A DNA stretch of 64,000 nt from a virus: the IMG/VR virus record IMGVR_UViG_3300005689_000056, positions 1 to 64,000 of that record. One strand, 5' to 3'. The notes below the pieces were generated by a model. The model saw only the letters and a program-made list of their open reading frames with translations. It was not told where the DNA came from and did not search any database. Below, piece after piece: positions 31,087 through 62,193 of the stretch (within the stretch, counting starts at the first letter, position 1; each line of letters opens with the position of its first letter). The position numbers and the translations under genes were made by a program.

Positions 31087-32730
31087 ATGGACATCACTAC
31101 GGAACAGACCGAACGCGATTCGGTGAAAGAGTTTTCGGATCGCCTTTGCGTCCTGTTGGATGCGGGCGCCGGCCTCATTCATGTACGAGCACATGAGCCA
31201 CTTCGCGCAGCCGTCGAGATTCGCAAGGTCGCCATTGCGGAAGGTGCAGCGATCAAGGAATGGGATGTCGTCAATGGCTTTCGTGATTTTTCGGAAACCA
31301 ATATCGGTAGCCACACCCTTGCGGGGGATGGCAACATCGACCCGCACGGCGCATTCATGCATCCACTCACCTATCTTCGCTCCCCGGAAAACACGAACGC
31401 ACAGTTCTACGTTTTCTATACGCTGCATCACTATCTTGAAGGTAACCCGCAGCTTCAGCACCTCATCACCACCTACAACCAGATTCTGCCATCCAGCAAT
31501 GTCGTAGTAGTCATCGTAACTCCAGACATCCCGCTGCCGGTACAGGGCGAGAACGTTCTGTCTATCACTTTCGACACGCCAAGCCTCAACGAACTGCGCG
31601 AGAGCCTTACGGCGGTGGTCGATGGTATCCGGGACGAGTTCGAGGACGGTGTCGATATGGACGATGACGCGTACAATCGTGTTTGCTACGTCGGCGCCGG
31701 CATGACCAAGAACGATTTTGAGATCTACTCGGCGCTATCTCTGGTTCGCGCGGGTCGCGATGGCCTGCCTTGCGTTACCGCAGACGAGGTCATCAAGGGC
31801 GTATCCGAAGGCAAGACTGACGTAGTTAACCAGTCCGAGATTCTGGAACTCTACCCCTCGACAAGTATCGAGAACGTCGGCGGTCTCGAGAACCTAAAAG
31901 AGTGGGTAGCACGACGCCGCCGTTGCTATTCGGACGAGGCGCGGGAGTTCGGTGTTGAGCCTCCGAAAGGTATTGTCCTTGTAGGCCCGCCCGGGACGGG
32001 TAAGAGCCTCGTAGCTAAGGCGGTGTCGTCGGAACTTGGTGTCCCTCTTGTACGACTAGATTTTGGTCGCGTGTTCAATTCGCTGGTAGGATCGTCAGAG
32101 CAACGTATGCGGCAGGCTCTGCGTCAGGTTGAGTCCATGGCGCCGGTTGTCTTATTCGCTGATGAGATCGACAAGGGCCTCGGCGGTATCGGTAGCGGGG
32201 GTGATAGCGGCGTATCCAGTCGGGTACTTGGTTCGTTTTTGACATGGTTGCAGGATTGCAAGCACCCTGTCTTTACGATGGTCACCGCGAACAATGTTAC
32301 CGGCCTCCCTCCGGAACTACTTCGCCGTGGTCGTTTTGATGCTATCTTCTCTACTTCGTTACCGAACGCTACCGAACGGCGCGAGGTGTTGAGAATCCAT
32401 CTTTCGTTGCGGGGTCGCAGTATCGAAGACTTCAACAAGGCGGAGATCGAGGAGTATCTGAAAGCTACGGAAGGGTACGTACCCGCAGAGATCGAGTCGT
32501 CGGTCAAGGATGCGCTTGTGGATGCCTTCAGCGCAGGTGAAGACCTCACAATGGATCATATGCTCGTTGCGGTACGCGCCATGGTCCCCTTGTCGAAGGC
32601 GTTCGAGAAGCGTATCAAGGAGATGAACGAGTGGGCGATTAACAACGCAACGCCTGCAGGAAAGAAGCAGGAACCTGCCCCCGCGACTAGCCTCGGGGCT
32701 CGGGTAATCAAGAGAACACGGAGGACGTAA
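31087..32730 (+). CDS. AAA+ ATPase, Ycf46-like
   Basis: GGLENLKEW, Walker A GPPGTGKS, Walker B LFADEIDK, TAN...LPPELLRRGRFD. Confidence 0.9.
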   Translation: MDITTEQTERDSVKEFSDRLCVLLDAGAGLIHVRAHEPLRAAVEIRKVAIAEGAAIKEWDVVNGFRDFSETNIGSHTLAGDGNIDPHGAFMHPLTYLRSPENTNAQFYVFYTLHHYLEGNPQLQHLITTYNQILPSSNVVVVIVTPDIPLPVQGENVLSITFDTPSLNELRESLTAVVDGIRDEFEDGVDMDDDAYNRVCYVGAGMTKNDFEIYSALSLVRAGRDGLPCVTADEVIKGVSEGKTDVVNQSEILELYPSTSIENVGGLENLKEWVARRRRCYSDEAREFGVEPPKGIVLVGPPGTGKSLVAKAVSSELGVPLVRLDFGRVFNSLVGSSEQRMRQALRQVESMAPVVLFADEIDKGLGGIGSGGDSGVSSRVLGSFLTWLQDCKHPVFTMVTANNVTGLPPELLRRGRFDAIFSTSLPNATERREVLRIHLSLRGRSIEDFNKAEIEEYLKATEGYVPAEIESSVKDALVDAFSAGEDLTMDHMLVAVRAMVPLSKAFEKRIKEMNEWAINNATPAGKKQEPAPATSLGARVIKRTRRT

Positions 32731-33374
32731 TGTCTGAAGAAAGCGAAGGTATCAACGTTCGTGTAGGTTGGGGGAAATACACATTCAGCACCTTGTCAGG
32801 GAGACTGTCTTGTATGGTTGTTGAACCCGCATTCAAGCAGTCCCTTGCAGGTGCGACTAGCGCCCCCGGCGTCATACGCAGGCTTGGTACCCCGCTTACC
32901 ACTATCGCTAGCGACTACCCGGAACTTCACGGCTCGCTACAGACTGTGAATATCCTGTCGCGTGAGGGTACAGTATTTTGCGCACGGTTCTCCAAGTCAA
33001 CCAATAAGCTACCCGCAGCGGACGCGGCGGTATTTGTGCGAGTACGGGAATCCGGGCCTACGGTCAAGATCAAAGCCCGCATCCCTGCGCACAGAGACTC
33101 GCATCTACCGGAGACCTTTCATGTGTTCACCGGTAAGGGGGATGTCTTATCCTACAATCAGCTTATCGGGGTAGGCATTGCGGTACCTAAGCAGTTTCGC
33201 TTTAGTTACATGGACGAAGAGGAGATCGAAGAATGTTTCGACGTAGTCGTGATGGATGACGGCTCTCCGGCAAACTTTACCGTCAAGGCGGAACGTCGGG
33301 TGAACGCCCGTGGCGAAGAGAAGGTAATCGTCGTATCAGAAGCCAGACGCCGCGTGCGAATCCGTCGTCCTTGA
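32730..33374 (+). CDS. Hypothetical protein with Arg-rich C-terminus
   Basis: GGAGG RBS, TAATG coupling. Confidence 0.7.
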   Translation: MSEESEGINVRVGWGKYTFSTLSGRLSCMVVEPAFKQSLAGATSAPGVIRRLGTPLTTIASDYPELHGSLQTVNILSREGTVFCARFSKSTNKLPAADAAVFVRVRESGPTVKIKARIPAHRDSHLPETFHVFTGKGDVLSYNQLIGVGIAVPKQFRFSYMDEEEIEECFDVVVMDDGSPANFTVKAERRVNARGEEKVIVVSEARRRVRIRRP

Positions 33375-33399
33375 CGAAGATTCTTATACGGTGTATCAT
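33371..33399 (+). promoter_or_regulatory. Sigma70-type promoter
   Basis: TTGACG-N17-TATCAT upstream of the DUF1257-like gene. Confidence 0.6.
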
Positions 33400-33433
33400 A
33401 CCATAGCAGCATACCTTAGTCAGGAGAACACTC

Positions 33434-33877
33434 GTGAGTCACACCACTGCAATCGATAACATCGTTTTTCAGGACATCGCCGCACTCACCGCTGCGGTCA
33501 ATGAGTTGGCAGCGCAAGGCATCAAGTGCAGTTTGGAGAAAGACGCGGTGCCGCGCGCGTACTACCAGAACCAAGTAGGCATGGAAAAGGCACCGTACGT
33601 TCTTCGCCTGCACGATGCGCCATTCGATATCGGTTTCTACTACGACAAGGACAAAGGCGGGCACGTAGCGCGTACCGACCTGCACGCCGGGCACGTCTCG
33701 CGCCAGCTTGGCGTACAGGCGCAGGGGTCGGAAACGGCGATGCAAGCAGCGCTTGGTAAGCTGAATCAGACCTACGCCATCCACGCCACCACCCGCGCGG
33801 CGGTCGCCAAGGGCATGCAGGTTCGCCGTGTCAACGGTAATGACGGTAGCGTCCGTCTCGTGGTCACGGGTATGTGA
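33434..33877 (+). CDS. DUF1257/Ycf35-like protein
   Basis: MSH.T.I....D...L..A, DIGF, L.Q.YA pattern; neighbour of the Ycf46-like ATPase. Confidence 0.75.
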   Translation: MSHTTAIDNIVFQDIAALTAAVNELAAQGIKCSLEKDAVPRAYYQNQVGMEKAPYVLRLHDAPFDIGFYYDKDKGGHVARTDLHAGHVSRQLGVQAQGSETAMQAALGKLNQTYAIHATTRAAVAKGMQVRRVNGNDGSVRLVVTGM

Positions 33878-34053
33878 TGGTAGATCCACTGGCCGTATCG
33901 GAATTGGCGGATAACGTAGAGCGTCTTGTTCGCCAGTTTCAGCAAGAAAACCAAATCGGGGTCGATTGTATCTCTGTCCAGAACTACTACGACGAGAACG
34001 GACTCATCCCCGGCCAAGTCATTGTGAAAGTCACTGTTGGAGGTAACACGTAA
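33877..34053 (+). CDS. 58-aa hypothetical protein (not in ORF track)
   Basis: MVDPLAVSEL...VGGNT fills the gap exactly, with TGATG and TAATG coupling on the two sides. Confidence 0.6.
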   Translation: MVDPLAVSELADNVERLVRQFQQENQIGVDCISVQNYYDENGLIPGQVIVKVTVGGNT

Positions 34054-34250: not shown

Positions 34251-34257
34251 GGCGATC

Positions 34258-34903: not shown

Positions 34904-36298
34904 ATGACAGTGGCGAAAAAAAACCCCCATTCCGTGGGCGCGGAACAGGGGCGGGTACTTCAGGTAGAACAACTTCGTGGTAATACGAACTATAGCAAAC
35001 TGCGGGAGGCTTTGCAAGGCGAAGACGGTATGCAGTACGACGTATCTGTCTACCGCCAGCGTACCGCCATTGATGACTGGTTTAGCGTTTTTGGTCTCTC
35101 GCATTTAACGAAAGCAGAGTATTTCGTGCTTAGGTTCATCCTCGCCCGCACCGTGCATTACGGTAAGACGAGTGAAATCATCTTCAAATCCCATTTTTTA
35201 GAAGGGATCATTGCCGGCGGGGAGTGGAAAGCTGCCCCCTGCGGCGTCAATAGTAGAGACCTCTATGCGTCTATCGACAGCCTAGAAGGTAAGGGACTGG
35301 TCTCTACTACTCGTGTTTCTACAGGTAGCCGACACCTTGCAACGCTCTACACGGTGCACGTAGATGCGATCCTTTCTTTGCGTGGAAGACCAGACATGGC
35401 GCTCAAAACACCTAAAAAGGCACGTCAAACAGGGGTGCCAATTGGCACCAACCACCCACCAAAAGACCGGTGCCAATTGGCACCCAAGAATAGTATTAAA
35501 GAAAACCTAAAAACGAATAGTGATGATGGAGGACGTTTGGCTTCGCCGCACGTCGGGAGGGTTCGTAGAGTAAGGCCAGCAACCACCCAGCAGGAAAATG
35601 CAATTGATTGCAAAAGCAAGATCCTGTCCATCGCACAGAAAGCCGCTGAGCGTTCCGCTACAAAGCAGTTGGAGAAAGTTCGGCGGGGCCGCGCCGCCGC
35701 GCCCGGGGCAATTACGCTTACCGATCTTAACGCTACGTGGAAGCGTTGTATGGTGCAGGCGTTCGGTAAGTGCGCGGTGGGTGCTCTTACACATGTCGAG
35801 TACGGTGTATTCAAAAAGATCGTGAAGGCCCACGATATATCATTCCCGTGGGTTGAGTTCTTTGAGTGGATCATTGGGTCTTGGTCCGCACTGAACGACG
35901 ACCACAAGAGGCGTGTGGATTACGCGAGGAAGAAAGAGGGCGGGTGGCCCCCCACCGATGATGGTTCTTTCTACCTAGGTACCGAGACACCCATGCTGTC
36001 GTCGGTGGTTAAGAATCTGGTCAAGCTCTCACGCATCTACACAGACAACCGCAACCGCGCAGTGTCACGCGTTACGTCGGATGCCGCCAAGTACATTGAA
36101 GAGGCGGAGCGTCAGCGAGTACGCGCGGAGAAGGCCGAGAAAGCACTGCAGAAAGTATCGTCCTTGCGTAGCACCCGGAAAGATACCCCAGCACCCGCGC
36201 GGCGGCAGCGTAGCGCCGTGGCGACTATCGCTAGGCCGGAGGATGATGACTACTTCGCAAAAGACGACCAGCTACCTGATTGGGAGGCTCAAGGATGA
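34904..36298 (+). CDS. Replication initiator, lambda O-like N-terminal domain
   Basis: LTKAEYFVLRFILARTVHYGK resembles the lambda O N-terminal helix-turn-helix region; iteron-like repeats inside the gene; upstream of loader/helicase. Confidence 0.65.
   Translation: MTVAKKNPHSVGAEQGRVLQVEQLRGNTNYSKLREALQGEDGMQYDVSVYRQRTAIDDWFSVFGLSHLTKAEYFVLRFILARTVHYGKTSEIIFKSHFLEGIIAGGEWKAAPCGVNSRDLYASIDSLEGKGLVSTTRVSTGSRHLATLYTVHVDAILSLRGRPDMALKTPKKARQTGVPIGTNHPPKDRCQLAPKNSIKENLKTNSDDGGRLASPHVGRVRRVRPATTQQENAIDCKSKILSIAQKAAERSATKQLEKVRRGRAAAPGAITLTDLNATWKRCMVQAFGKCAVGALTHVEYGVFKKIVKAHDISFPWVEFFEWIIGSWSALNDDHKRRVDYARKKEGGWPPTDDGSFYLGTETPMLSSVVKNLVKLSRIYTDNRNRAVSRVTSDAAKYIEEAERQRVRAEKAEKALQKVSSLRSTRKDTPAPARRQRSAVATIARPEDDDYFAKDDQLPDWEAQG
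35434..35520. repeat. Putative replication origin: two palindromic iterons plus A-rich tract
   Basis: GGTGCCAATTGGCACC at 35434-35449 and 35469-35484, followed by A/T-rich 35486-35520. Confidence 0.65.
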
Positions 36299-38161: not shown

Positions 38162-38365
38162 ATGGACCGGTACGCGTATCTACTCAGCCTAGATGAGATC
38201 TTCTTCGTGAAGGAGCATCAGGATAGCCCGCAGGTTCAGGCACTCATTGCCACCTGCGAAAAGATTGTAGACCTTGAGGAGCAACTTGACGCGCTGCGCG
38301 ATACGATGGCTGTGCAGAGTCAGGAAATGTTCCGGCGTAGAAGGAGAGTACGGCGTGACGTATAG
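38162..38365 (+). CDS. Hypothetical protein
   Basis: Short ORF between helicase and polymerase. Confidence 0.55.
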   Translation: MDRYAYLLSLDEIFFVKEHQDSPQVQALIATCEKIVDLEEQLDALRDTMAVQSQEMFRRRRRVRRDV

Positions 38366-41096: not shown

Positions 41097-41519
41097 ATGG
41101 CTATACGCGTTAGAAGGGTTCGCCGGGGTGGGGCCGACGTAAACCCACACAAAGATACGATGGACCGGCTTTTGCAATCGATTGCAGAAAAGCAGGAGGA
41201 GGCTGCGCGTCTGACTTCTCTTGCTGCGGCGGAGCTAGTCCAGCTTAACGGCTTGATGGGCGACTTGAAGCTGGGTACCTACCAGTTCGAGAATATCTAC
41301 GCCACCCGCGCTCAATCTACAGGTCGGGCCACGAACTTTATTGACCCTGCGGCATTCCGTAAGGAGTGTGCGAGTGATAAGGAATTCTACGGCGCGGTGA
41401 CCGTATCCATTACCGAGGCTAAGGCCATCCTGCCGGGTAAGGTCTTGGAGAAGATCATTGAGACGAAGCCGGCCAAGCCCGGTCCTTACACTACCAAGGT
41501 TAGTCGCAAGGTGAAGTGA
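41097..41519 (+). CDS. Hypothetical protein with N-terminal RVRRVRR
   Basis: AGGAGG RBS directly downstream of the promoter. Confidence 0.75.
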   Translation: MAIRVRRVRRGGADVNPHKDTMDRLLQSIAEKQEEAARLTSLAAAELVQLNGLMGDLKLGTYQFENIYATRAQSTGRATNFIDPAAFRKECASDKEFYGAVTVSITEAKAILPGKVLEKIIETKPAKPGPYTTKVSRKVK

Positions 41520-42511: not shown

Positions 42512-42867
42512 CAGTTGTACCGTGCCTACCTAGTATTACGTCTGACGCCGACGAGGGTATAGATATAGCAGCTAGACTGCTTAGCCCTTTGCGTCAAGGT
42601 AAGGGAGTAACCCTGAGCGTTACGGATAAGAGATTGAGCAAGAAACGGCGGATTAAATCCGCCACACTGTTTCTTACACCGGGTTCCGCCTATGGCGGCA
42701 GTGATAGCGTGATCTTGGCTTCGATGCCGGGGTACGGCAGTGAATTGTTCGATATCTATACCGTCAAGCCTATGGTCTTTTACCGTGTTGGTTTGAGTAT
42801 GCGTCTTTCGCGGGCGCTGGTAGCAGCAATCACTGATGTTTTTCAAGGAGTAAATCATGGTTCGTAA
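42427..42867 (+). CDS. Hypothetical protein (start uncertain)
   Basis: Only + strand ORF filling the primase-SSB gap. Confidence 0.35.
   Translation: MCEDKKRSRVAKRSRDGIHGGGKKNRSLTVVPCLPSITSDADEGIDIAARLLSPLRQGKGVTLSVTDKRLSKKRRIKSATLFLTPGSAYGGSDSVILASMPGYGSELFDIYTVKPMVFYRVGLSMRLSRALVAAITDVFQGVNHGS
42508..42536 (+). promoter_or_regulatory. Possible sigma70 promoter
   Basis: TTGACA-N17-TAGTAT. Confidence 0.45.
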
Positions 42868-44122
42868 GGCAGCAAGAACCTCTGCACATCGCGGTGCGGA
42901 AGGGCGTGCAAAAGCCGAGGCAGAGCGTGAACGCGCCGCAGCCCGCGCCGAGGCTCGCAAAAACCAAGGTAACATCCCGTTCCGGTTCCGCGTACCGGTG
43001 GGTGAGACGACACAGGCAATCATCTGCGATGAGGAGCCGTACTTTTTCCGGTTTGAGCACAACCTGAAGAATCCGAAGACTGGCAAGTGGGATACATTCA
43101 CCGGTTGCGTCGCGGAGTACGACAACTGCCCAGTGTGCGCCGCCACGGACAAGGAAGCGTATTACGCGATGTACCTTACCGTGATTGACCTTACGCCGTT
43201 TGAGACCAAGAACGGTGACGAAGTCGAGTTCAGTCGCAAGTTGCTGGTCGTCAAGCCGGCGCAACAGAAAAAGTTTCTTCGCATGTATGCCAAGGCCGAG
43301 GCCAAGGGCAATACTCTGCGGGGGGCGCTGATCGAGTTTACCCGTGACTCTGACAAGGATGCGTCCATCGGTAACGAGATCGAACTACTCGAATACGTGG
43401 ATGAGGAGGAGCTTGAGACCTACACTCGCTCGTGGAAGGACAAGGACGGTAAGCGTCACGAGGAGATCTGTCACGAAGTACTGGACTATGACGAGCTTTT
43501 CCCTGAACCCGACGTTGATCAACTTCGTGCGCTGGTAGGCGGCGAGCCGGTTCCCGGTAGCCGCGAGCATGAACGCTCAGCGCTTGGTCGTGGTAGCAGC
43601 CGTCGCACCTCGCGCCGCGATGAGGAAGCGGACGATGAGGAGGAAGAAGACGAAGGCAAGCACGCTCGCGGTCGTATGCGGACAGGCGGTAAGGCTCCAG
43701 CCAAGGCAGCTACCAAGACCCGCCCCGCCGCGCGCCGCGCTCGTGAGGAGGAAGAGGAAGGGGACGATGAGGACGATGAGGAGGACGATGAGGCTGCACC
43801 CCCACGCCGTGGTCGTTCGTCTACCAAGACCCGCCCCGCCGCGCGCCGCGCTCGTGAGGAGGAAGAGGAGACCAAACCGTCCCGTCGTGGTCGCCCGGCG
43901 GCAAAGAAGGCTGACGATCCGCCATTCGACACCGACGACGATGAGGAGGAAGAGGAAGACGACGAGGAGGAGGATACCAAGGCCTCCGCCAAGACCCGTC
44001 CCGCACCGCGTCGTGGTCGTTCGGTAGCGAAGAAAGACGACGAAGAGGAAGAAGAAGAGGAAGAAGAAGAGAAGGTTAATCGGCGCAACCCCCGTCGTGT
44101 ATCCATGCGTCGCGGTCGGTAA
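42857..44122 (+). CDS. Putative ssDNA-binding protein (gp32-like core) with long charged disordered tail
   Basis: H...C......CPVC zinc motif and OB-fold-like core in the replication module; ~180-aa tail of alternating D/E and R/K blocks. Confidence 0.65.
   Translation: MVRKAARTSAHRGAEGRAKAEAERERAAARAEARKNQGNIPFRFRVPVGETTQAIICDEEPYFFRFEHNLKNPKTGKWDTFTGCVAEYDNCPVCAATDKEAYYAMYLTVIDLTPFETKNGDEVEFSRKLLVVKPAQQKKFLRMYAKAEAKGNTLRGALIEFTRDSDKDASIGNEIELLEYVDEEELETYTRSWKDKDGKRHEEICHEVLDYDELFPEPDVDQLRALVGGEPVPGSREHERSALGRGSSRRTSRRDEEADDEEEEDEGKHARGRMRTGGKAPAKAATKTRPAARRAREEEEEGDDEDDEEDDEAAPPRRGRSSTKTRPAARRAREEEEETKPSRRGRPAAKKADDPPFDTDDDEEEEEDDEEEDTKASAKTRPAPRRGRSVAKKDDEEEEEEEEEEKVNRRNPRRVSMRRGR
43710..43869 (+). 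repeat. 49-bp exact direct repeat in the SSB tail
   Basis: 43710-43758 equals 43821-43869 (TKTRPAARRAREEEEE). Confidence 0.9.
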
Positions 44123-46162: not shown

Positions 46163-46498
46163 ATGGATTCAGGGAGAGTAAGACGGGTGCGACCCAGCGG
46201 TGAGGGGGCTTCCGAGGAAACCGTAGAGGTGGTATCTACCTCGGTTACAGGGCAGGCATCGCCCACCGTAAAGCAACGTACGCTGAGTGTGCGCAAGTTT
46301 GTCACTCAGCCGGCGTACGTAGGGGTCTCTGCCGGGGTAACCAAAGAGACAGGGTCGTACGAGTTTCTGCGGGTAGACATCACCGTCAATATGCCGTGCT
46401 ACGTAGAGGAAGTGGATCGCGTATCTCACGAGGTTGCAGAGTATGTTGCGCAGCGTCTTGACGAAGAGATAACCGAGTATCTTGGCGGGGAGGAATAA
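46163..46498 (+). CDS. Hypothetical protein with N-terminal RVRRVR
   Basis: GAGGTG RBS. Confidence 0.7.
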   Translation: MDSGRVRRVRPSGEGASEETVEVVSTSVTGQASPTVKQRTLSVRKFVTQPAYVGVSAGVTKETGSYEFLRVDITVNMPCYVEEVDRVSHEVAEYVAQRLDEEITEYLGGEE

Positions 46499-47621: not shown

Positions 47622-47983
47622 GTCGCGAGTCTTTTCTGAATCGCGATACCAAGCACGGTAACGCCTCTTACCGCAGATCTCGTAAACAGGAGAAAGAACT
47701 GTCTATCAGGCTGCGGGGGAGGCAAACTGTAGCGTCGGGTAGTAAAGCAGAGAAGGGGGATGTGAGGGTCAAGCGTATTCTACGGCTTGAGGCGAAGACG
47801 ACTAAACATCGCAGCTTTTCTGTAACCCTTGACATGATTAATCAGATAGAGGAGGCTGCGCTTTCGAGCGAGGAGCTTCCCTGCATCTTGATAGAGTTCA
47901 ACGATGGCAACGGCAAGCGAATCAAAGAAGTGGCCGTAGTACCAAGTTACGTACTTGACGACCTTGTCTCTAAACATAGTTGA
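47618..47983 (+). CDS. PD-(D/E)xK nuclease, Hjc-type Holliday junction resolvase
   Basis: QEK...SGS..KGDV...LEAK. Confidence 0.7.
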   Translation: MSRESFLNRDTKHGNASYRRSRKQEKELSIRLRGRQTVASGSKAEKGDVRVKRILRLEAKTTKHRSFSVTLDMINQIEEAALSSEELPCILIEFNDGNGKRIKEVAVVPSYVLDDLVSKHS

Positions 47984-47997
47984 AATCGATTGCAAAC

Positions 47998-48876
47998 ATG
48001 ACTACCAAATCCAGAGTAGTGCGCCGTAAAAAGGCTGACCCGGAAGGCGATTCACCCGTAGTGGTTTATGGGCAAGATGATACCCCGGTAATTGACTTGC
48101 TTCTTAGTGCTAAGCGCAAGCGTGACAAGTTTCGGAGAGGCGAGTACCTGCACGTATCCGACGTGGTAGGTAAGTGCGTACGTAAGATAGCGCTGTCGGA
48201 GGCACACGGGATGCCTATGCCTACTGAGCCTATCACGCACTCGATGGCAATGACCTTTGCACAGGGTAGTGCCTTGCACGACTACGTGAAGAGCGCACTT
48301 GTGCGACACCCCGACATGCCACTATGGGGGTCTTGGACTTGCAAGTGTGGAGCCAGTTTGGAGGAGCGTCGTTCTCATGCTGAGGTGGCTGATCTGCATT
48401 GCGAGGATTGTGGGGGGCCTCTCGATCAGTATGTAGAGATTGACATCAAGGATACGGAGTTACTGGTTAGCGGTTCGCCTGACGTTATCCTGAAAGAACC
48501 GACCAAGAACTGCTACCACATTCTTGAAATCAAATCGATGTCTCATGAGGAGTGGAAGGGTCTCGTACGCGCCAAGCCTGACCATATTGTGCAGGTCGTC
48601 ATGTACTGGTATCTCATGCGTCGGGCGGGGTTCCGTACCACCTCTACGGTCTCTGTACTATATGTCACCAAGGGTTTTGTGTTTAAAGGCCAGCCCTTCA
48701 AAGAGTTCGTTATTGATTGTGATACCGCGCTACGCCATATTGATGACTACATCGAGGACGCAAAGGCCTTCGCTCGTTTTCGCGAGACAGGCGAGCTACC
48801 GGTACGTACCAAGTGCGCAACGATAAATTGCCCAGAAGCTAAGAAGTGTCACGTAGCTATGGAGTGTTTCTCGTGA
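47998..48876 (+). CDS. Cas4/RecB-like exonuclease
   Basis: CVRK...G..LH...SGSPD...LEIKS...Q...Y and three C-terminal Cys. Confidence 0.75.
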   Translation: MTTKSRVVRRKKADPEGDSPVVVYGQDDTPVIDLLLSAKRKRDKFRRGEYLHVSDVVGKCVRKIALSEAHGMPMPTEPITHSMAMTFAQGSALHDYVKSALVRHPDMPLWGSWTCKCGASLEERRSHAEVADLHCEDCGGPLDQYVEIDIKDTELLVSGSPDVILKEPTKNCYHILEIKSMSHEEWKGLVRAKPDHIVQVVMYWYLMRRAGFRTTSTVSVLYVTKGFVFKGQPFKEFVIDCDTALRHIDDYIEDAKAFARFRETGELPVRTKCATINCPEAKKCHVAMECFS

Positions 48877-49513: not shown

Positions 49514-50878
49514 ATGGCAAAGAAAGCAGCATTCAAGATCGGTGACACCGTCAATTTCCTCGGCTACTCCGAGGAGATGCCTGACAACGAAAAGATCCTC
49601 ACCGAAGGCAACACCTACACGGTGGTTGAGGTAAACGACGCAGAGGAACTGGTCAGCGTCGAGATGGCGAACCCGGAATTCAACCCGAAGAAGGCCGAAA
49701 GCGACAAGAACCCGAAGACCCTGATTGTCGATGTCTTCCTCAACGAAGTCGAGCTTGCCGACGGTGAGGAAGAAGAGGCCCCGCCGCCGAAGAAGGCTGC
49801 TTCCAAGACCGCCGCCAAGGGCAAGGCCAAGGGCAAGGCTGTCGCTGAGGAAGAAGAGGAAGAAGAGGAAGAGGAAGCCGACGAGGAAGAGGAAGAAGAA
49901 GAGGAAGAAGCCCCGCCGCCGAAGAAGACCGCCGCCAAGGGCAAGGCCGCTGCCAAGGAAGAAACCAAGGCCAAGACTCCGGCGAAGAAAACTGCCGCGA
50001 AGGCTCCTGCCAAGGCTGACGCCAAGACGAAGGCTCCCGCCAAGTCGAAGGCCAAGGACGAAGAAGAGGCCGACGAGGACGATCTGCCCGATCTGGAGAA
50101 CGAAGACGAGGAAGTCGCAGCCTTGGTCGAAGAGGCCGAAAACGTCCTCGATCTGGCCGAAGAACTGATCAATGACAGCGCGGCAATCGACTACAAGCTG
50201 GGCGGCGTGCTCTACCATATCCGCAAGGGCAAGTTGCACCACAAGGCCGACAAGCGCTACCGCGAGGCCGGCGGCTTTGGTCTCTACGTCAAGGAACGCC
50301 TGAACGTCGAGTACCGCAAGGCGATGAACCTGATCGAGATCTACGTCAACTTCAACCTCGCCGGCATCAGCGGTGAGAAGGTGGCCGAGATCGGCTGGAC
50401 CAAGGCAAGCAAGATCGCCTCGCTGATGAGCCAGAAGCTCAAGGGCGGCGCAGAGGTCGATGACCTTGGCGAACTCGGCGAAGAACTGGTCAAGGTCGCC
50501 GAGAATTCGTCGGTCAGCGATCTGGTCGATACGATCAAGGAAGATTACGCAGTTGCCGGCGCCAGCAAGGGCGAAAAGGTCAAGCGTATTACCTTCCGGT
50601 TCCGCCTGATCGAGAACGCCGGGGCGGCAGTCACCGAGGTACTGGAGGCTCAGGCGAAGCTGATGGGGGCGAAAGACTTGTCGGATGCTTTCGAACACAT
50701 CGTGATGGAATGGGCCGTCGAGCATATGGACACCCCGCCCGAGATCAAGGTGCCGGCCGAGGGCAAGACGGCAGGCAAGTCGGCAGGCAAGTCGGCAGGT
50801 AAGGCAGCATCTGCCTCCACCGCCAAGGGCAAGACGGCAGGCAAGACCACCGCCCGCCGTGCCCGTACCGAAGAGTAA
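49514..50878 (+). CDS. Highly charged putative DNA-binding/nucleoid protein
   Basis: FKIGDTV SH3-like start, poly-Glu and Ala/Lys-rich tracts, helical C-terminal domain; strongly biased codons. Confidence 0.7.
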   Translation: MAKKAAFKIGDTVNFLGYSEEMPDNEKILTEGNTYTVVEVNDAEELVSVEMANPEFNPKKAESDKNPKTLIVDVFLNEVELADGEEEEAPPPKKAASKTAAKGKAKGKAVAEEEEEEEEEEADEEEEEEEEEAPPPKKTAAKGKAAAKEETKAKTPAKKTAAKAPAKADAKTKAPAKSKAKDEEEADEDDLPDLENEDEEVAALVEEAENVLDLAEELINDSAAIDYKLGGVLYHIRKGKLHHKADKRYREAGGFGLYVKERLNVEYRKAMNLIEIYVNFNLAGISGEKVAEIGWTKASKIASLMSQKLKGGAEVDDLGELGEELVKVAENSSVSDLVDTIKEDYAVAGASKGEKVKRITFRFRLIENAGAAVTEVLEAQAKLMGAKDLSDAFEHIVMEWAVEHMDTPPEIKVPAEGKTAGKSAGKSAGKAASASTAKGKTAGKTTARRARTEE

Positions 50879-51196: not shown

Positions 51197-51901
51197 ATGC
51201 CGGGAGCAAAGAAACACGTAAGGCGTGCACGCAGTCGCGTACGGGCTGCTACGTCTTTGGGGGTGCCTCGCGTAGAGATGCACTATCTGGACATTTCGTC
51301 TATCGTACCCTACGAGTTGAACCCGAGGGATAACGCTGCCGCTATCGAGTCTGTCGCTAACTCCATCCGTAGTTTTGGGTTCCTTGTACCCGTAGTCGTG
51401 GACGCTAATAATGTACTTGTGGCGGGGCACACCCGGGTCGAGGCAGCTAAGACCCTAGGCCTTAATGAAGTACCTGCTATCAAGGCTGACAAACTCACCC
51501 CAGACCAGATTGACGCGTTCCGTATCATCGATAACAAGGTATCGGAACTCGCACGCTGGGACTTCGACCTACTGTCGGTCGAGATCACCCGGCTTACCGG
51601 GTCGGGTATTGAGTTCGTTGGTTACGGCTTTACGCAGGAAGAGGTTGATTGTCTCTCGGATGCTGTGGCCGACGATTGCCTCAATGTCGATAACCTCGTA
51701 GACCAAGAGGCCCGGGACCGCACACGACGCGCGGAACGGCGCGCACCAGCTACGGCACGGTTCGTGTTGGGGGAGTTGGTATTCTTCATCACAGCCACGG
51801 AGTACCGGAACTGGGTAAGCGGGGTACGAGAGCTTTGCGACTACGACGAGACCGCCATCACCGCAGAGATCAAGCGGCGTCTCGGTATTTCACAGGGGTA
51901 A
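51197..51901 (+). CDS. ParB/Srx-like N-terminal domain protein
   Basis: PYELNPR...SIRSFGFLVPVVVD...AGHTR..AA...DNK..E...WD. Confidence 0.88.
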   Translation: MPGAKKHVRRARSRVRAATSLGVPRVEMHYLDISSIVPYELNPRDNAAAIESVANSIRSFGFLVPVVVDANNVLVAGHTRVEAAKTLGLNEVPAIKADKLTPDQIDAFRIIDNKVSELARWDFDLLSVEITRLTGSGIEFVGYGFTQEEVDCLSDAVADDCLNVDNLVDQEARDRTRRAERRAPATARFVLGELVFFITATEYRNWVSGVRELCDYDETAITAEIKRRLGISQG

Positions 51902-53417: not shown

Positions 53418-54164
53418 ATGACTTTGAAGATCGAGAATGGGAGGGTTATTCACTACCCTACTGGTGACAAGTTCGCTTTCGACGGGGAGGTGGCTTTGAT
53501 CTTCCCTGATATGGCCCGGAGGTCAATACCTTTGTACGATGAAGTACACCGTATGCACGCCTCGCTACTGTCCCACGTGTGGGATACGAAGTCGGCGCAT
53601 GTAGTGGATGTCGGGGCCTCGCGGGGAGAATTTTTCCGTGCTATTTGCAATCAATTGCAATGCTCGGAGCGCCACCCTCCTAGCTGGTTGCGTCTTACCG
53701 CTATCGATTCGTCACCACACATGATGGCTAGACTGAAAGACGATATGCCTAAAGTGGAAGTCATCACCGGGTATGCTCAAGACTTGCAGCCTCTTGAGCA
53801 TAAGGCAGATGTGATATCTATGTTCTACATTCTGCAATTCATCGAGGCTGACGCGGATAAGTTGAAGGCCTTGCGCTGGGCAGCGGATAACCTCAAGCCG
53901 GGCGGGGTATTGCTGCTAGGGCAGAAAGATACGGTGACACATACGTACGACGCTATGTTCACTAGGGAGTACCATAACTTTAGGCGCCGCAACGGCTACA
54001 CCATTGCGGAGATTGCGGCTAAGTCTGCCGCACTCAAGAACTCGATGTGGACTAGCTCGCCAGCATGGCTTGAGGATATGTGCATCCAAGCCGGGTTCTG
54101 CGACTATGTCGTAACGTCGCGTTGGCTGCAGTTTTCTACCAGCATCTGCACTATTGGGGGGTAA
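53418..54164 (+). CDS. CmoA-like protein (carboxy-SAM synthase family)
   Basis: FAFDGEVA.IFPDMARRSIPLY, DVGASRG, AIDSSPHM, LQF, LKPGG.L.L..K, F...NGY...EI..K..L.N.M follow the CmoA motifs in order. Confidence 0.8.
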   Translation: MTLKIENGRVIHYPTGDKFAFDGEVALIFPDMARRSIPLYDEVHRMHASLLSHVWDTKSAHVVDVGASRGEFFRAICNQLQCSERHPPSWLRLTAIDSSPHMMARLKDDMPKVEVITGYAQDLQPLEHKADVISMFYILQFIEADADKLKALRWAADNLKPGGVLLLGQKDTVTHTYDAMFTREYHNFRRRNGYTIAEIAAKSAALKNSMWTSSPAWLEDMCIQAGFCDYVVTSRWLQFSTSICTIGG

Positions 54165-54165
54165 C

Positions 54166-54915
54166 ATGGCTGACAGGGAAAATGGAGAGACTGTAGGTCG
54201 TCGCATCTCGCGTCGGCGTTCAGGCTTTGCGTTCTCGGGGGCTTCTGTCTCTGACTCCACGCAGCAGCAAGGCGGCAATATCAATGACGGTGTGGAGAGG
54301 ATGGTCAATACCCCGCCATCGTCTTTACCGCCGCCTGAGCCACCACAGACAATCGCGGGGACGCCGTCTGAGGACTTCAACCCGCAGGGGCGTCTGGCGC
54401 AGGTGCGCCGCCGTTCTACCACCTACGAACGAGAGTACCGGCTGAATCTACTACACCGCCTCATGATGCGTGGGGTACCGCTCGATGAGATAGCAAACCA
54501 GCTTGGTATCTCTGTGTCTCAGGTATATCGTGATCGTGACGAGTTGAAGGAGCGCCATCGCGCATCGTCTCGCAGTCTGGATATCGACGAGATCATCGGA
54601 GACAGCAAGGGGTATTACGAGGAAGCTGGTGCTATGGCTATGCGCGCCGCCTCCAAGAACGACCTACCCTACGCAATGCGTCTTGCGGCTGTACGTACAG
54701 CGTTAGCCGCCAAGAATGACATGCACCGTTTCTTCCAGACAGCAGGTGTCTATGACGTGTTGCGTTTTCGCAAGGCGCAGGACGGTAACGGTACGTCCGA
54801 TGTTCGTCGCCTCATGGAGAATACTGAGCGCCTTCTGTCCGGCGGTCTGGGTGACCTCAGCGGTGCGGTCAACGACGCTATCGATTCTGGCGATCAGGAG
54901 AATCTTGACCTATGA
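54166..54915 (+). CDS. Terminase small subunit (putative)
   Basis: HTH GVPLDEIANQLGISVSQVYRD; ATGA-coupled to terL. Confidence 0.7.
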   Translation: MADRENGETVGRRISRRRSGFAFSGASVSDSTQQQGGNINDGVERMVNTPPSSLPPPEPPQTIAGTPSEDFNPQGRLAQVRRRSTTYEREYRLNLLHRLMMRGVPLDEIANQLGISVSQVYRDRDELKERHRASSRSLDIDEIIGDSKGYYEEAGAMAMRAASKNDLPYAMRLAAVRTALAAKNDMHRFFQTAGVYDVLRFRKAQDGNGTSDVRRLMENTERLLSGGLGDLSGAVNDAIDSGDQENLDL

Positions 54916-57797
54916 CTGCCACACACACCCGCCGCGTAGGGAGACGACGGACCCCGGGTGCCGCGCCGGGGGTTAGCGAGCAGGCTCGCGCCATGGTTCA
55001 AGGGGCGTGGGAGGAGGCTGAACGTTGCGAGAATAAGCTGTTCGGTGAGATGTACGCCACCGCGTTAGAGCGCAAGGTGTATTACAACGATACGGTGCTA
55101 TTCGACTTCATGAAGCACCTCACGCACGCTCCGGTAGGCATAGAAGAGTTTCTGTCGGGGTCGGAGTTTCTGGGGGCTACTGACATATCGTTGTGGCCCG
55201 AAGTACGCGCAGCCATCGTTGATATTAACAAGTACTGGTGGAAAGGTCAGGTAGGAGGGGCCAAGCATGAGGCTCTTCTGATGGGCTCGTGTGTAGACGC
55301 GCTAACCGAGTTTTTAACCCCGAACGGCTGGAAGTATATTTCCGATTTTGAGGAAGGTGATCTTGTCGGTCAATACTCGGTAGACGGTACTCTAGAGTTT
55401 GTGACACCGCAGGCGTACATCCGCCGCCGCCACCGAATGTTTTACCACTTCGCACCTCGGGGCGGTCTGGATATGATGTTAACTCCGGGGCATCGCGTTA
55501 TCTACCGGAACAGGAACACCGGGGAAATCTGCGAGATGTCCGCAGAGGACGTGGCCGAGAACCACAATAGAACTGCTACCGGGTTCACAGGTAAGTTCCT
55601 ATCTACCTTTACCCCTACGGGGCGGGTAGGGATTGATCTATCCGACGAACAGATCCGTGTGATGGTTATGGTTCATGCCGATGGCTCCTTTGATACAAGG
55701 GATGACTCCAGTTGGTGTAATGTGATCGTAAAAAAGCCGCGGAAAATTCGCAGGGCTAGGCGTATCCTTCAGGAGGCGGGTATTGCGTTTACTGAAGTAC
55801 CGCACAACGGAGACTACCGCCGCATCCGTTTTTACGCGCCGCAACGGAACAAGACATACGAGGGTTGGTGGGGTTGCACACAGGACCAGCTCCGTATTGT
55901 TACCGACGAGGTAATGCACTGGGATGGCTCCGCGAGGCACCAACAGTTCTACACTGCGAAGAAAGAGGAAGCTGATTTCATCCAGTACGCCTATCTCGCT
56001 ACAGGGGTACGGGCTACCATGCAGTGGCAAGATCGCGGGGGAAATCGGTCTGTCGAGTATAGGGTGAAGCGTTGTCGTTCCGCTGAATACACCATGTCCG
56101 CTTCGCCTAAAGGGCCTGAAGCACAGCTTGTTGAAGCCAGTGATGGGTATTGCTACTGCTTCACACTGCCTACGGGTATGTGGTTGGCGAGGCGCAACGG
56201 TAGTGTATACGTCACCGGGAACACAGGTAGCGGAAAAACGGAAATATCGAAGATTACCCAGCTATACCACCTTTACCTGTTGTCCTGCTTGGACAACCCG
56301 CAAGGCTACTACGGCCTGCCGAAAGCGACCTCTATTGTGTTCGCTATCATGGCCGCTAAGCCGCACGTGACGAAGAAGGTTATCTACGACCCTCTGCGCC
56401 ACATGATTGAGCACATCCCGTATTTTCAGAAGCACCTACGACCGAGCAAGCTGGTTGAGTCCGAGATGATCTTTGAGGAGAAGAACATCCGTGTAGTGCC
56501 TGCGGGTGTGGACGCCGACTCGATCCTAGGTGAAGCAGTACTTTCGGGGATCATTGACGAAATCAACTTCATGAACGTTGTGCTACGTTCTAAGAAGGCA
56601 GAGGTAACCACAGGCCGCGCTGGGGTCTACGATCAGGCCCAGACAATACACAGTGCAATGACCCGCCGTATCAAGGGTCGTTTCACCAAGCCCGGACCCA
56701 AGATAGGGATACTCTGTACGTCATCGTCAACCCGCTATAAAGGGGACTTTACCGACAAGCGTAAGGCTCAGGCTCTGCAGCACGACGAGCAAGGTATCTA
56801 CATCTACGATAGGCCGCAATACGAGGTAAAACCTCAAGAAAATTTCTGTGGGCAAAAGTTTAGGCTGCTTGTCGGTAACGACATGATCAACGATGTGCGT
56901 ATCCTGAAGGACGGGGACGCCGTACCGCCAGAGGCTCGCGTTCTAGACATCCCCATCGAGTATGAGACGGAGTTCCAGAGAGACCCGCATTCCGCCCTAC
57001 GAGACATCTGCGGTATATCCACCTCGGCTATTTCCCCCTTCATTACCCGTCGTTTCAAGATCTACGAGGCTGTGTCTGCCGGGGAGGAGGAAGGTATCCA
57101 GTCGTTCCTCAACAAGGACAACGTTATTCTAGGTGTGGATGGGATGCCGGTCGTGAAGTACAGCCATTACTGTACCGACCCCTCACGTCCGCGCTATGTG
57201 CACGTTGACTTGTCGAAGACCGGGGACAGTTGTGGTATCGCCATGCTGAGATACGATGGCCTCACCTCCGTTACACGCAGTAATGGGGCTATCGAGAAGC
57301 TACCTATCGCTACCATTGAGATGGCGTGCTCAATACAGCCTGACTCCAATAATGAAATAGATTTTGCGGAGGTTCGTACATGGATACGGCAGCTACGTGA
57401 TGTATACGGGTACCCGATCAGGGCGGTAACATACGACGGTATCTTTAGTATCGAGTCCGTACAGCAGTGGCGCAAGATAGGTATGCGCACTGGTAATATT
57501 TCGGTAGACAGAACGTCCGCACCGTACAAAAACCTGCGTGACGCCTATAACGATAACCGCATACGGCAGTACCATCAGGAGGTACTGATCCGCGAGCTTT
57601 TTGATTTGGAGTACGATGACGATAAGGACAAAGTCGATCACCCGGTGAATGGCAGTAAGGATGTGGCGGATGCAGTGGCCGGCGCCTACTACTCGATGCT
57701 GACCAAGCGCAGTACTTGGGTGTCCGAGTCAGGTAACGAGGTAATAGGTAATGGCCGTGCGGAATTTGGTGAACGTTTCGAGGGGAGTAGGCGATGA
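54912..57797 (+). CDS. terL: Terminase large subunit, intein-containing
   Basis: Spliced Walker A GS/TGSGKT, Walker B GIIDE, nuclease HVDLS...D, DHP..GSKDVADAVAG. Confidence 0.9.
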   Translation: MTATHTRRVGRRRTPGAAPGVSEQARAMVQGAWEEAERCENKLFGEMYATALERKVYYNDTVLFDFMKHLTHAPVGIEEFLSGSEFLGATDISLWPEVRAAIVDINKYWWKGQVGGAKHEALLMGSCVDALTEFLTPNGWKYISDFEEGDLVGQYSVDGTLEFVTPQAYIRRRHRMFYHFAPRGGLDMMLTPGHRVIYRNRNTGEICEMSAEDVAENHNRTATGFTGKFLSTFTPTGRVGIDLSDEQIRVMVMVHADGSFDTRDDSSWCNVIVKKPRKIRRARRILQEAGIAFTEVPHNGDYRRIRFYAPQRNKTYEGWWGCTQDQLRIVTDEVMHWDGSARHQQFYTAKKEEADFIQYAYLATGVRATMQWQDRGGNRSVEYRVKRCRSAEYTMSASPKGPEAQLVEASDGYCYCFTLPTGMWLARRNGSVYVTGNTGSGKTEISKITQLYHLYLLSCLDNPQGYYGLPKATSIVFAIMAAKPHVTKKVIYDPLRHMIEHIPYFQKHLRPSKLVESEMIFEEKNIRVVPAGVDADSILGEAVLSGIIDEINFMNVVLRSKKAEVTTGRAGVYDQAQTIHSAMTRRIKGRFTKPGPKIGILCTSSSTRYKGDFTDKRKAQALQHDEQGIYIYDRPQYEVKPQENFCGQKFRLLVGNDMINDVRILKDGDAVPPEARVLDIPIEYETEFQRDPHSALRDICGISTSAISPFITRRFKIYEAVSAGEEEGIQSFLNKDNVILGVDGMPVVKYSHYCTDPSRPRYVHVDLSKTGDSCGIAMLRYDGLTSVTRSNGAIEKLPIATIEMACSIQPDSNNEIDFAEVRTWIRQLRDVYGYPIRAVTYDGIFSIESVQQWRKIGMRTGNISVDRTSAPYKNLRDAYNDNRIRQYHQEVLIRELFDLEYDDDKDKVDHPVNGSKDVADAVAGAYYSMLTKRSTWVSESGNEVIGNGRAEFGERFEGSRR
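55290..56222 (+). mobile_element. Intein (311 aa) with LAGLIDADG-type homing endonuclease
   Basis: Starts CVDALTEFLTPNGWK.I; VHADGS and MHWDGS blocks; ends YCFTLP...VTGN followed by Thr. Confidence 0.92.
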
Positions 57798-59474: not shown

Positions 59475-59503
59475 TTGACAAAGAATCGTAACTGGGTGAT
59501 AAT
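59475..59503 (+). promoter_or_regulatory. Sigma70-type promoter
   Basis: TTGACA-N17-GATAAT; shares TTGACAAAGAA with the 41048 promoter. Confidence 0.6.
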
Positions 59504-60095: not shown

Positions 60096-60380
60096 ATGGG
60101 TTACTACATCCAAGGGCCATTGTCTGGAAAGGGAGCGCACCTTGTGCGCGAGTACGGTGCCACGGCTTGCAGCGAGAAGGATGCACGGGCTGCGCTCGAT
60201 TCCGAGGACATGGTGCCGGTGTGCGTCGTAGACAACGGTATGTTCGACGCGGCGGCACTGGCCTACGACAAGCAAGAGTTTGATGTGTTTGCCGGTGATA
60301 CTTCTGGTCGCCCGAAGCGGTGGTATATCATGTCTCGGGCGCGGGCTTACGAACTTTCTGGGTACAAGGTGAAGAAATGA
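60096..60380 (+). CDS. Hypothetical protein
   Basis: GAGGAGG RBS. Confidence 0.75.
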   Translation: MGYYIQGPLSGKGAHLVREYGATACSEKDARAALDSEDMVPVCVVDNGMFDAAALAYDKQEFDVFAGDTSGRPKRWYIMSRARAYELSGYKVKK

Positions 60381-60889: not shown

Positions 60890-60901
60890 TAACCGCTTAA
60901 C

Positions 60902-61184
60902 GTTGCAGCGGACGTGCGGAGACAAAATCGTTAATCAGGCCTAAGCTAAGCCGGGTAAGTGCTAAGCATCTGACTCCTAATCAGACCAAGGCAAGTCCCT
61001 CAATGGGCAACCTCAAGTGTCATGGTTTAAGGCTAAAGGTAGTAAGGTTTAGTCAGATTAAGGCGGTAAGTGTTATGTGCGTAAGGATGACGCCTGTAGG
61101 TTAGGCAAAATCCCTGTACGAAGTTAGGCGCCCTGAGCCTTACGAATCTTCGAGGGCTTCCCGTATGGGTTGCTGCAACCACCA
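60902..61184 (+). ncRNA. Candidate structured ncRNA
   Basis: Closing stem GTTGCAGCGG / TTGCTGCAAC, no credible ORF, nine TAAG units, anticodon-arm-like hairpin, downstream hairpin at 61190-61212. Confidence 0.55.
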
Positions 61185-61219
61185 ACACCGCAGGGGGCGC
61201 AATACCCCCTGCACTTTCA

Positions 61220-61330
61220 CAGTCTATCGGCCAGCTTCGTGCCTGCGCACGGCGCCCGTCCGGCTCCTCCCTCCCCTCACCGGACGAGCGCTGCCTGATA
61301 CCCCCCGGCACGAAGCTGCCCCATAGACTG
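61220..61330. ncRNA. Long imperfect hairpin, candidate sRNA
   Basis: Nested inverted repeats of 8, 12 and 12 bp around a C/T-rich loop. Confidence 0.45.
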
Positions 61331-61525
61331 TCAACCGCATACAGGCGGCACAGCGTATAATCGCAATCGATTTCAACTCTCCAAAAAGGGGGAATATCTG
61401 TGAGATATAGCAATGCGCTTCTTACTAGACATCATTACCGTGATATGCGGCCTGATCGTACTGATTGCACTCGCTTCGGCGTCCCCGGTGTCATCATTTC
61501 TCGGTTGGATGGTTAGCTTGCTGAA

Positions 61526-61864
61526 ATGATTTTCGATAAGGAACAATGGCCGCTATCTGTGTCGTATGGCGGGCCTGATCTGTACGCGGGGGTAGTAAGC
61601 CCTTTTGTGTCGGTATGTAATGGTGACACCGGTAAGGTTCTCTACCGTGTGCGGGTGGTACCGCCTACGGCGTTCTTTCCTTTTGCTGCGCAGCTTGTAG
61701 GCCTGACCGCCTTGGCTGCGGAGGGCGGTAAAGTTAAGTTCTTTCTTGAGGACTGGGGGGACGTGTGGTCTTTCGGATTCTCTGCCCGAGGGGACATGTA
61801 CGACCTATGGCCTTATAAAGAGCTACCGGTGTGGGCCGAGAAACGATTCAAGGTGACGAAATGA
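61526..61864 (+). CDS. Hypothetical protein
   Basis: ATGA-coupled to the next gene. Confidence 0.55.
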   Translation: MIFDKEQWPLSVSYGGPDLYAGVVSPFVSVCNGDTGKVLYRVRVVPPTAFFPFAAQLVGLTALAAEGGKVKFFLEDWGDVWSFGFSARGDMYDLWPYKELPVWAEKRFKVTK

Positions 61865-62193
61865 GACCTGAGCCTGCGAAGTTTACGAAAGACAACCCGT
61901 GCACGAAAAAACACATATGGAACTGCTTCGCCGGGCCGCAGGGGTTGCGACCAGTAAGTGTAGTAGCCGCACAGGCACAGATAGGCGTGTATGTACCACG
62001 GGTGATGGAGCGAAATGCTCGCCTAGTATGTAAGACTGTCAAAGGTACTGACTACTACGAGCTTACGCCGGAGGGTGAAGAGTGGCTTACGGCAGGTATC
62101 CGTAGCTACCTGAAGAACCACCCCTCGGAGGCCGGGGAGGTGACGTACCCGCCAGATACCTTACCTGCTAGAGTAAGACGAGTACGCCGCTGA
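61861..62193 (+). CDS. Possible winged-helix protein with C-terminal RVRRVRR
   Basis: YYELTPEGEEWL wing-like motif; AAGGTG RBS. Confidence 0.6.
   Translation: MRPEPAKFTKDNPCTKKHIWNCFAGPQGLRPVSVVAAQAQIGVYVPRVMERNARLVCKTVKGTDYYELTPEGEEWLTAGIRSYLKNHPSEAGEVTYPPDTLPARVRRVRR

Follow-up and report, generated by a model that had tools for sequence, protein, structure and literature searches.

The acidic tails of single-stranded DNA-binding (SSB) proteins, i.e., the A-domain of T4 gp32, the tail of T7 gp2.5 and the SSB-Ct of Escherichia coli, gather replication and recombination proteins electrostatically, and T4 gp32 has in addition a basic N-terminal KRKST motif. Arginine-rich linear motifs (VBM, with an RRRR core) dock on p97, and the Arg-rich ARM peptides of lambda N bind RNA. 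Peptides with four Arg residues bind to DNA (Kd ~0.2-0.4 uM at low salt) and slide along it, and this "molecular sled" activity is insensitive to spacing, to order and to the exchange of Lys and Arg (PMC4797294). The acidic tracts of nucleophosmin (NPM1) dock Arg-rich linear motifs, which leads to nucleolar entry (PMC4786410), and RNase E of Pseudomonas aeruginosa has Arg-rich short linear motifs (SLiMs) that bind RNA and cause foci to form (PMC11964227). Here an Arg-rich hexapeptide, RVRRVR, is described that recurs in otherwise unrelated proteins of an uncultured virus (IMG/VR record IMGVR_UViG_3300005689_000056, 99,461 bp), of which the first 64 kb (positions 1 to 64,000; GC 55%, genes almost all on the + strand) constitute the window studied. 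The motif, R-[VI]-R-R-[VIL]-R and often G-RVRRVR-P/S, is a SLiM that is under selection and can move between proteins and protein ends. The explanation ranked first, at a little less than an even chance (probability about 0.45), is that it serves as a common docking or address tag, gathering DNA-transaction and head-assembly proteins on one polyanionic platform.

From ~31 kb on the phage is syntenic with Pseudomonas phage SM1/PaMx31 (genus Samunavirus), with protein identities of 30-57%, while Rhizobium phage L338C, Agrobacterium phage JP1 and Rhodobacter phage RcKickapoo resemble it more distantly. Mycobacteriophage Corndog was also included in the comparison; the AAA ATPase is the sole homolog to this phage that was detected in it.

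An earlier note, made from the window alone, had reported exact RVRRVR in four non-homologous proteins. All four copies were recovered (Table 1), and the rest of the genome adds two, at 81146 and 84161, as well as RVRRIR at 87274, at the N-terminus of the portal protein. Each of the six exact copies is on the + strand and inside an open reading frame (ORF), and three have the context G-RVRRVR-P. With independent, identically distributed residues (R 7.3%, V 8.5%) 0.006 copies of any one arrangement would be expected, and shuffled proteomes contained 0.01 on average. Among the 15 possible arrangements of four Arg and two Val, the genome contains only RVRRVR and its overlapping one-residue extension, VRRVRR. 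The shuffles and this permutation control rule out composition alone as the source of the hexamer. The broader patterns R-h-R-R and R-R-h-R occur 24 times here vs. 4.6 in shuffles and 23 times in SM1 vs. 4.8, i.e., they are about five-fold enriched, an excess that was not seen in RcKickapoo or JP1. Basic protein termini, on the other hand, are over-represented in all six phages examined, Corndog included, and the looser variants of the motif are therefore weaker evidence than the exact hexamer. The enrichment over composition-matched controls that the earlier note asked for was obtained for the exact hexamer.

The copies are also encoded independently. They use different mixtures of AGG, CGT, AGA, CGC, CGG and CGA for Arg and of GTT, GTA and GTG for Val, and a pair of copies shares 1.20 identical codons, while 1.40 would be expected from the codon usage of the genome. 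Since this is no higher than chance, selection acts on the peptide, as had been proposed, and not through copying at the DNA level. Nucleotide identity among the copies is 0.62, vs. 0.9-1.0 for peptide repeats that are truly DNA-borne (QSIA, and VRKPNTP of Corndog, encoded by its GTTCGGAAACCGAAC repeat). Together with the codon analysis, this contrast rules out a DNA-level repeat translated by chance. No other hexapeptide common to at least four proteins at low nucleotide identity was found in the six genomes compared. Within the six RVRRVR sites 50% of the Arg codons are AGA or AGG vs. 18% genome-wide (p = 4e-4), which may be the trace of a Lys-to-Arg history (JP1 has Lys-type tags) or an avoidance of CG-rich runs.

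One could still suppose that the motif has no function and is a by-product of an Arg-rich, 55% GC composition, of the bias toward basic termini or of a repeated DNA element, and it is true that basic termini are enriched and that DNA palindromes do yield recurring peptides in these phages. Such an origin is highly improbable, for the exact motif was rejected as a product of chance by shuffles, permutation control and codon analysis alike, and orthologs conserve it amid divergent flanks. We are close to certain that the motif is real: it is non-random, independently encoded at each site, conserved in orthologs and movable between protein termini.

The tagged set comprises at least 12-15 otherwise unrelated proteins, in which the tag lies in disordered ends or linkers (Table 1). 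It spans the initiator, the AAA ATPase and its neighbour, the SSB, the exonuclease, ParB, both terminase subunits, the portal, the scaffold-like and capsid proteins, and several small proteins. The eight looser variants listed in the earlier note all translate as claimed and at the places given there. Its restriction of the tag to non-virion proteins, however, had to be abandoned, since head proteins encoded beyond the window are tagged as well: the portal has KRVRRS...RVRRIR near its N-terminus, a scaffold-like 450-aa protein (89403), encoded after the S78 protease gene, has RRVRRARS at aa 46, the capsid protein 90785 has RRVRTIR at aa 46, and a neck protein is likewise tagged. The absence of the tag from tail and lysis proteins was confirmed as a count (0/29 vs. 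11/106 elsewhere), although the difference is not significant (Fisher p = 0.12) and is confounded by the lack of homology between that module and its counterpart in SM1. The DNA polymerase of this phage is untagged, and the tag is found instead at the start of the next gene (MAIRVRRVRR).

Table 1. Tagged proteins and candidate partners; positions are those of the window, except for the Nlig-Ia protein, which lies beyond it.
Feature	Coordinates	Strand	Protein (gene) and place	Remarks
RVRRVR	35558..35575	+	initiator-like protein (34904-36298), inter-domain linker, aa 219-224	context G-RVRRVR-P
M-A-I-RVRRVRR	41106..41126	+	140-aa protein (41097-41519), N-terminal	gene after DNA polymerase
MDSG-RVRRVR-P	46175..46192	+	111-aa protein (46163-46498), N-terminal	upstream of RecA; phrog_25619 match
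A-RVRRVRR-stop	62170..62190	+	110-120-aa protein ending at 62193, C-terminal	
ARVIKRTRRT	32698..32727	+	Cdc48-like tandem AAA ATPase (31087-32730), C-terminal tail	
RRRVRIRRP	33345..33371	+	214-aa protein (32730-33374), C-terminal	downstream neighbour of AAA gene
RRRRRVRR	38333..38356	+	67-aa protein (38162-38365), C-terminal	
RRVSMRRGR	44093..44119	+	gp32-like protein (42857-44122), C-terminal	right after a run of ~14 Glu
SRVVRRKK	48010..48033	+	Cas4-like exonuclease (47980-48876), N-terminal	
HVRRARSRVR	51215..51244	+	ParB-like protein (51197-51901), N-terminal	
RRISRRRS	54199..54222	+	small-terminase candidate (54154-54915), N-terminal	HTH domain
RRVGRRR	54930..54950	+	large terminase (54912-57797), N-terminal	
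N-terminal tag	genome 81059-81466		Nlig-Ia protein, 135 aa	stand-alone DNA-ligase Ia-like NAD-binding domain (PF22745, E 3e-10)
Candidate reader	31087..32730	+	tandem D1-D2 AAA ATPase, Cdc48/p97 type, without N domain	Pfam AAA PF00004
Candidate platform	42857..44122	+	gp32-like SSB	170-aa polyampholyte tail, four poly-Glu/Asp tracts alternating with KTRPAARRAR-type blocks
Candidate platform	49514..50878	+	454-aa protein	net charge -30, poly-Glu blocks, AKGK/PAKK histone-like repeats, folded C-terminal domain

Exact RVRRVR was not found in frame in SM1, L338C, RcKickapoo, JP1 or Corndog, a result that led to the recognition of a separate consensus in each lineage. Absence from orthologs, which had been named as an outcome that would speak against the tag, was not observed: in SM1 and in uncultured relatives, orthologs with 30-65% identity keep R-h-R-R(-h-R) while the flanks diverge, sometimes with the tag at the opposite end of the protein or on the adjoining gene. 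In the initiator ortholog of SM1 (gp034), RVRR occupies aa 217-220, the same place as the hexamer here. Orthologs of the 41097 protein begin with MTRIRRIRR, MADRIRRVR or MPQRKRRVRIRR, so that the pattern M-x-x-R[IV]RR[IV]R is kept in relatives, and SM1 gp038, its SM1 ortholog, has QVRRLRRP (N-terminus MAIMRNPQVRRLRRP). The polymerase of SM1, unlike the one here, is itself tagged (C-terminal RVRRIR...RIRRSR). The C-termini of orthologs of the 32730 protein (QRRMRVRRT, TRRIRLRR, QRRMRIRRT and RRRVRIRSRKRR) preserve RR[MIV]R[IVL]RR, and a 74-aa ortholog of the 38162 protein ends with RKRRIRRAK. Further basic peptides in SM1 belong to gp045, the ortholog of the 46163 protein (N-terminus MALPRRINTKRPK), to gp084, the ortholog of the protein ending at 62193 (C-terminus TRVRRAK), to the ortholog of the Cas4-like exonuclease (N-terminus MPTIRRP...KRRRSS), to gp054, the ortholog of the small-terminase candidate (RRNLRRVRGG), and to gp123 (N-terminus ...RPRVRVRP).

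The protein with the Nlig-Ia domain illustrates the portability of the tag, which is N-terminal here and C-terminal (TTRVRRRSR) in SM1. Members of a Zn-finger protein family start with MHG-RVRRVR, MKA-RVRRLR and MTQT-RIRRVR, the latter two at 52-54% identity and with divergent acidic linkers. The portals of relatives begin with RIRRVR or RVRRVR, and in uncultured relatives one or the other is also found on the scaffold-like protein and on small proteins. Scans of viral contigs with single proteins (the 46163 protein or the polymerase) gave no match, whereas alignment-based scans did.

More distant lineages have tags of their own. In L338C, (V)RTRVR[PG] is found at the start or end of at least eight proteins, with differing codons; among them are the portal, the RecA and post-helicase proteins and the Nlig-Ia homolog, which has three copies of RTR[VT]RP at its C-terminus. 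In JP1, at least 10-14 proteins, again with differing codons, share an M-[PA]-I-[KR]-x-[KR] N-terminus, including TerL, the Zn-finger protein, the AAA ATPase (MPIKRK), the polymerase and RecA, while the portal has a looser start, MPKLAKRRRR. When proteins were counted for each motif in each phage, R[VI]RR[VIL]R was present in five proteins here, RTRVR in five of L338C and ^M[PA]I[KR] in 10 of JP1, and the off-diagonal counts were 0-2 (shuffle means <=0.15), i.e., each motif is confined to its own lineage; the L338C and JP1 motifs were defined after the data had been viewed, so that the counts as such are descriptive, although the excess is a large one. Such lineage-specific tags on overlapping sets of orthologs fit what a docking or address signal predicts. 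Moreover, a lineage-wide, concerted change of the tag on orthologous sets is predicted by co-evolution with a reader and is not predicted by generic charge.

How might such a tag act? We infer its binding, the target and the resulting co-localisation as follows. The tag would bind one shared polyanionic platform, which may be the replicating phage DNA, the poly-Glu tracts of the 42857 and 49514 proteins coating that DNA, or both. As a result, proteins of replication, recombination, modification, packaging and head assembly would be held in one replication-packaging zone. The docking or localisation signal put forward in the earlier note is supported in part, by the selection on the peptide, its conservation and portability in orthologs and the tags of sister lineages; the limitation to non-virion proteins does not hold, and the hub or compartment would be a consequence of the proposed docking.

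The two candidate platforms have four (42857) and two (49514) acidic tracts, and their SM1 orthologs one each. The 42857 protein gave a weak match to the zinc subdomain of gp32 (E 0.25), and homologs of the 49514 protein are present in SM1, L338C, RcKickapoo and JP1. Blocky polyampholyte regions like those of both proteins are typical of condensate-forming or DNA-coating proteins. As in the nucleophosmin system (PMC4786410), many clients carry Arg motifs in disordered regions, a candidate scaffold with several poly-acidic tracts is encoded, and a membraneless compartment around nucleic acid would be expected. Nucleophosmin is, however, eukaryotic and unrelated in sequence, its motifs are loosely defined (RxnR), and condensation is suggested here by analogy. 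AR1 and AR4 of RNase E (PMC11964227) are likewise disordered and Arg-rich; they bind RNA and are involved in helicase docking and focus formation. They differ from the tag, as do the ARM peptides of lambda N, in that they belong to a single protein and not to a whole proteome. The comparison with SSB hubs reveals an inversion. In the known systems the SSB carries the shared peptide and its partners use folded basic pockets, whereas here it is found on the partners, and head and packaging proteins are tagged too.

Several observations weigh against a shared polyanionic platform. The indifference of sled activity to residue order and to K/R exchange means that generic binding to DNA or poly-Glu leaves the fixed order, the invariant aliphatic positions, the lack of Lys and the concerted shifts of the sister lineages unexplained, and every phage examined has many basic termini. 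Start-codon choice decides whether two of the window's three N-terminal copies are translated (in the 46163 gene an alternative GTG start at 46187 would drop the tag; the 41097 gene has a strong Shine-Dalgarno sequence, TAGGAGG, 4 nt upstream of its ATG). JP1 combines acidic tracts with Lys-type tags and L338C has tags but, by the criterion used, no acidic tracts, hence the covariation of tracts and tags across lineages is imperfect. Finally, the 42857 and 49514 proteins themselves have basic C-terminal peptides.

The platform might also be dispensable, if the tag were a non-specific nucleic-acid tether without a dedicated reader, each basic tail having been gained independently and raising the time that a protein dwells on DNA. 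With few exceptions the tagged proteins have DNA as their substrate or are exposed to it inside the head, peptides with four Arg do slide, and basic termini are enriched in related phages. RVRRVR, with four Arg in six residues, resembles sleds in being short and in having at least 3-4 basic residues, and RRARAR-type peptides slide (PMC4797294). The adenovirus pVIc and nuclear localisation signal (NLS)-like sled peptides (PMC4740752, PMC4797294) are similar to the tag in being short, in having about four Arg and in being attached to unrelated viral proteins, and their sequence-nonspecific affinity for DNA could bring partners together on viral DNA. The sled, though, is released by protease and free in order, spacing and K/R content, whereas the tag, known here from sequence, is genetically fused, has fixed order and aliphatic positions, excludes Lys and differs in consensus between lineages. 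A sled tolerates any order and Lys; here one hexamer occurs six times, other arrangements are absent outside those copies, the core has no Lys and lineages switched together. The motif is thus far more constrained (1/15 arrangements) than sledding needs; sledding is consistent with it but does not account for it, and a tether of this kind as the whole explanation appears unlikely.

The main rival to a platform-docking tag is a protein reader, and the candidate is encoded by the first gene of the homologous region. The gene at 31087-32730 is predicted to encode a Cdc48/p97-type tandem AAA unfoldase: in its AlphaFold2 model (pLDDT 77.6) residues 1-250 form a degenerate D1, Foldseek aligns the model over its full length to D1-D2 of Cdc48/p97/VAT (E 9e-23, TMq 0.64 to 8u8i_A), the C-tail (aa 529-547) is modelled as disordered (pLDDT <50), and the AAA lid PF17862 is present in homologs. 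An N domain (double-psi-barrel) was looked for and rejected, as the model aligns to D1-D2 only. According to this explanation the ATPase, with its neighbour (32730-33374), would engage clients by their disordered terminal peptide and remodel, assemble or recycle them, or else the clients and the ATPase tail would dock on the same receptor.

A number of facts argue for it. The modelled structure resembles unfoldases that thread substrates from disordered ends, and the ATPase is the only protein-remodelling enzyme common to all four tag-using lineages. About 96 homologs keep a specific Arg-rich tail, [NA]RRV[ST]TRxR or NRSRVSTRRR, after a variable linker. In distant lineages (loci L044-L113) the ATPase and a ~215-aa downstream neighbour both have an R-A-L-D-L-type tail, while both are Arg-rich in this clade; since the two share a tail type in each lineage, both tails change together. 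Few further proteins with R-x-L-D-type tails were found in the distant loci, where gene calls were crude. In JP1 the ATPase bears the MPIKRK tag of its own lineage, and a concerted, lineage-specific change of the tag suits a protein reader better than DNA. Yet, the ATPase bears a tag as the other DNA proteins do and may therefore be one client among many. VIM and VBM are read by the N domain of p97, which the phage enzyme lacks, and Corndog, with an AAA homolog of 28% identity, has no peptide tag; the one peptide that recurs there is a DNA palindrome. There is also no obvious reason why polymerase, terminase and portal alike should be unfolded. The likeness to the reading of SLiMs by Cdc48/p97 (VIM, VBM, C-tail with PUB/PUL) consequently extends to a tandem AAA ATPase and Arg-rich motifs, and the difference lies in the absent N domain and in the tag on the ATPase. 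Neither the VBM (E-h-RRRR-L-x-h-h) nor the VIM (R-x5-AA-x2-R) consensus applies, given that no RVRRVR copy has acidic or helical flanks. On balance it is improbable that this module reads the tag. More than 1,600 homologs of the ATPase were seen in metagenomes; contigs of 85-106 kb carry many of them, and some contain inteins (PF14890).

Terminal basic motifs can serve as ClpX signals (MuA-type), which brings to mind a degron, a protease site or a capsid-targeting signal, so that tagged proteins would be destroyed at a set time by a host AAA+ protease, cut by the S78 prohead protease or loaded into the head. The portal, scaffold-like and capsid proteins are tagged near their N-termini and their genes adjoin that of the prohead protease. 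We regard these possibilities as quite improbable, because the tag occurs at either terminus as well as in a linker and is found on enzymes needed throughout infection (polymerase-associated, RecA-associated, terminase); in addition, no shared cleavage context surrounds the tags, and T4-type capsid-targeting sequences are exclusively N-terminal. A T4-type capsid-targeting sequence or prohead propeptide was rejected as a class for the same copies at C-termini, in the linker and on replication enzymes. A Tat signal was also rejected, as the sequence after the N-terminal copies is acidic or polar (PSGEGASEE, PAAPVEEVEED) where a hydrophobic h-region would be required, and so was an AT-hook, which has an R-G-R-P core, because here G and P are present only as flanks of RVRRVR.

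A broader and bolder proposal would cover the whole group of 90-110-kb siphoviruses (Samunavirus, L338C, RcKickapoo, JP1 and uncultured relatives). In this group a proteome-wide peptide address code would co-evolve in each lineage with a dedicated reader, either the Cdc48-like module lacking an N domain or a poly-Glu scaffold that assembles a membraneless factory for replication and packaging, and the identity of the tag would decide on admission. This we hold to be doubtful. No phage nucleus is known from this group (the genome was not searched for shell proteins). No paper with RVRRVR in a phage context was found, and the accessible parts of the papers on Samunavirus do not hint at one.

Should the tag prove to be an address label, a mid-sized phage would use a simple, transplantable rule to organise replication, recombination, modification, packaging and head assembly in one place, and the tag would provide a handle for finding the organiser. 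The RVRRVR, RTRVR and MPIKRK versions constitute a natural swap experiment, testable in cultured relatives, i.e., SM1 and PaMx31 on P. aeruginosa, L338C, JP1 and the Rhodobacter phages. The tag gives a first functional lead for the widespread, unstudied phage Cdc48-like ATPase and could help to annotate small proteins as members of the DNA-transaction set.

As to the genome itself, the replication, packaging and head modules have homologs in SM1, whereas for the tail and lysis block (1-31 kb) none was detectable there; the genome is therefore a mosaic, and judged by sequence the tail/lysis module appears to be an import. The module junction sits just before the AAA gene (31087). No tRNA genes were found within the window. 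Matching DNA came from metagenomes of bioreactors, activated sludge and freshwater, and the listed sequencing runs with sequence of this phage were DNA only, with no RNA dataset among them. The large terminase has 961 aa vs. 643 aa in SM1. It contains an insert of ~300 aa (roughly aa 125-434) without a Pfam match, which may be an intein-like or homing element.

Two palindromes were also observed. The 14-bp TGCAATCGATTGCA has 16 copies genome-wide. Most of them coincide with or immediately precede a gene start and there give rise to ORFs beginning with MQSIA or LQSIA; seven copies lie in the window (3881, 7441, 14303, 17384, 23923, 41173 and 58562) and nine beyond 64 kb. In RcKickapoo the QSIA peptide is found in nine ORFs, a footprint from which it follows that the DNA site is conserved across the group, and it is probably a regulatory site. 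The two copies of the 16-bp GGTGCCAATTGGCACC (35434-35449 and 35469-35484), at a distance of 35 bp, belong to the initiator-like gene, whose RVRRVR codons follow ~90 nt downstream, and they are candidate origin or iteron sites.

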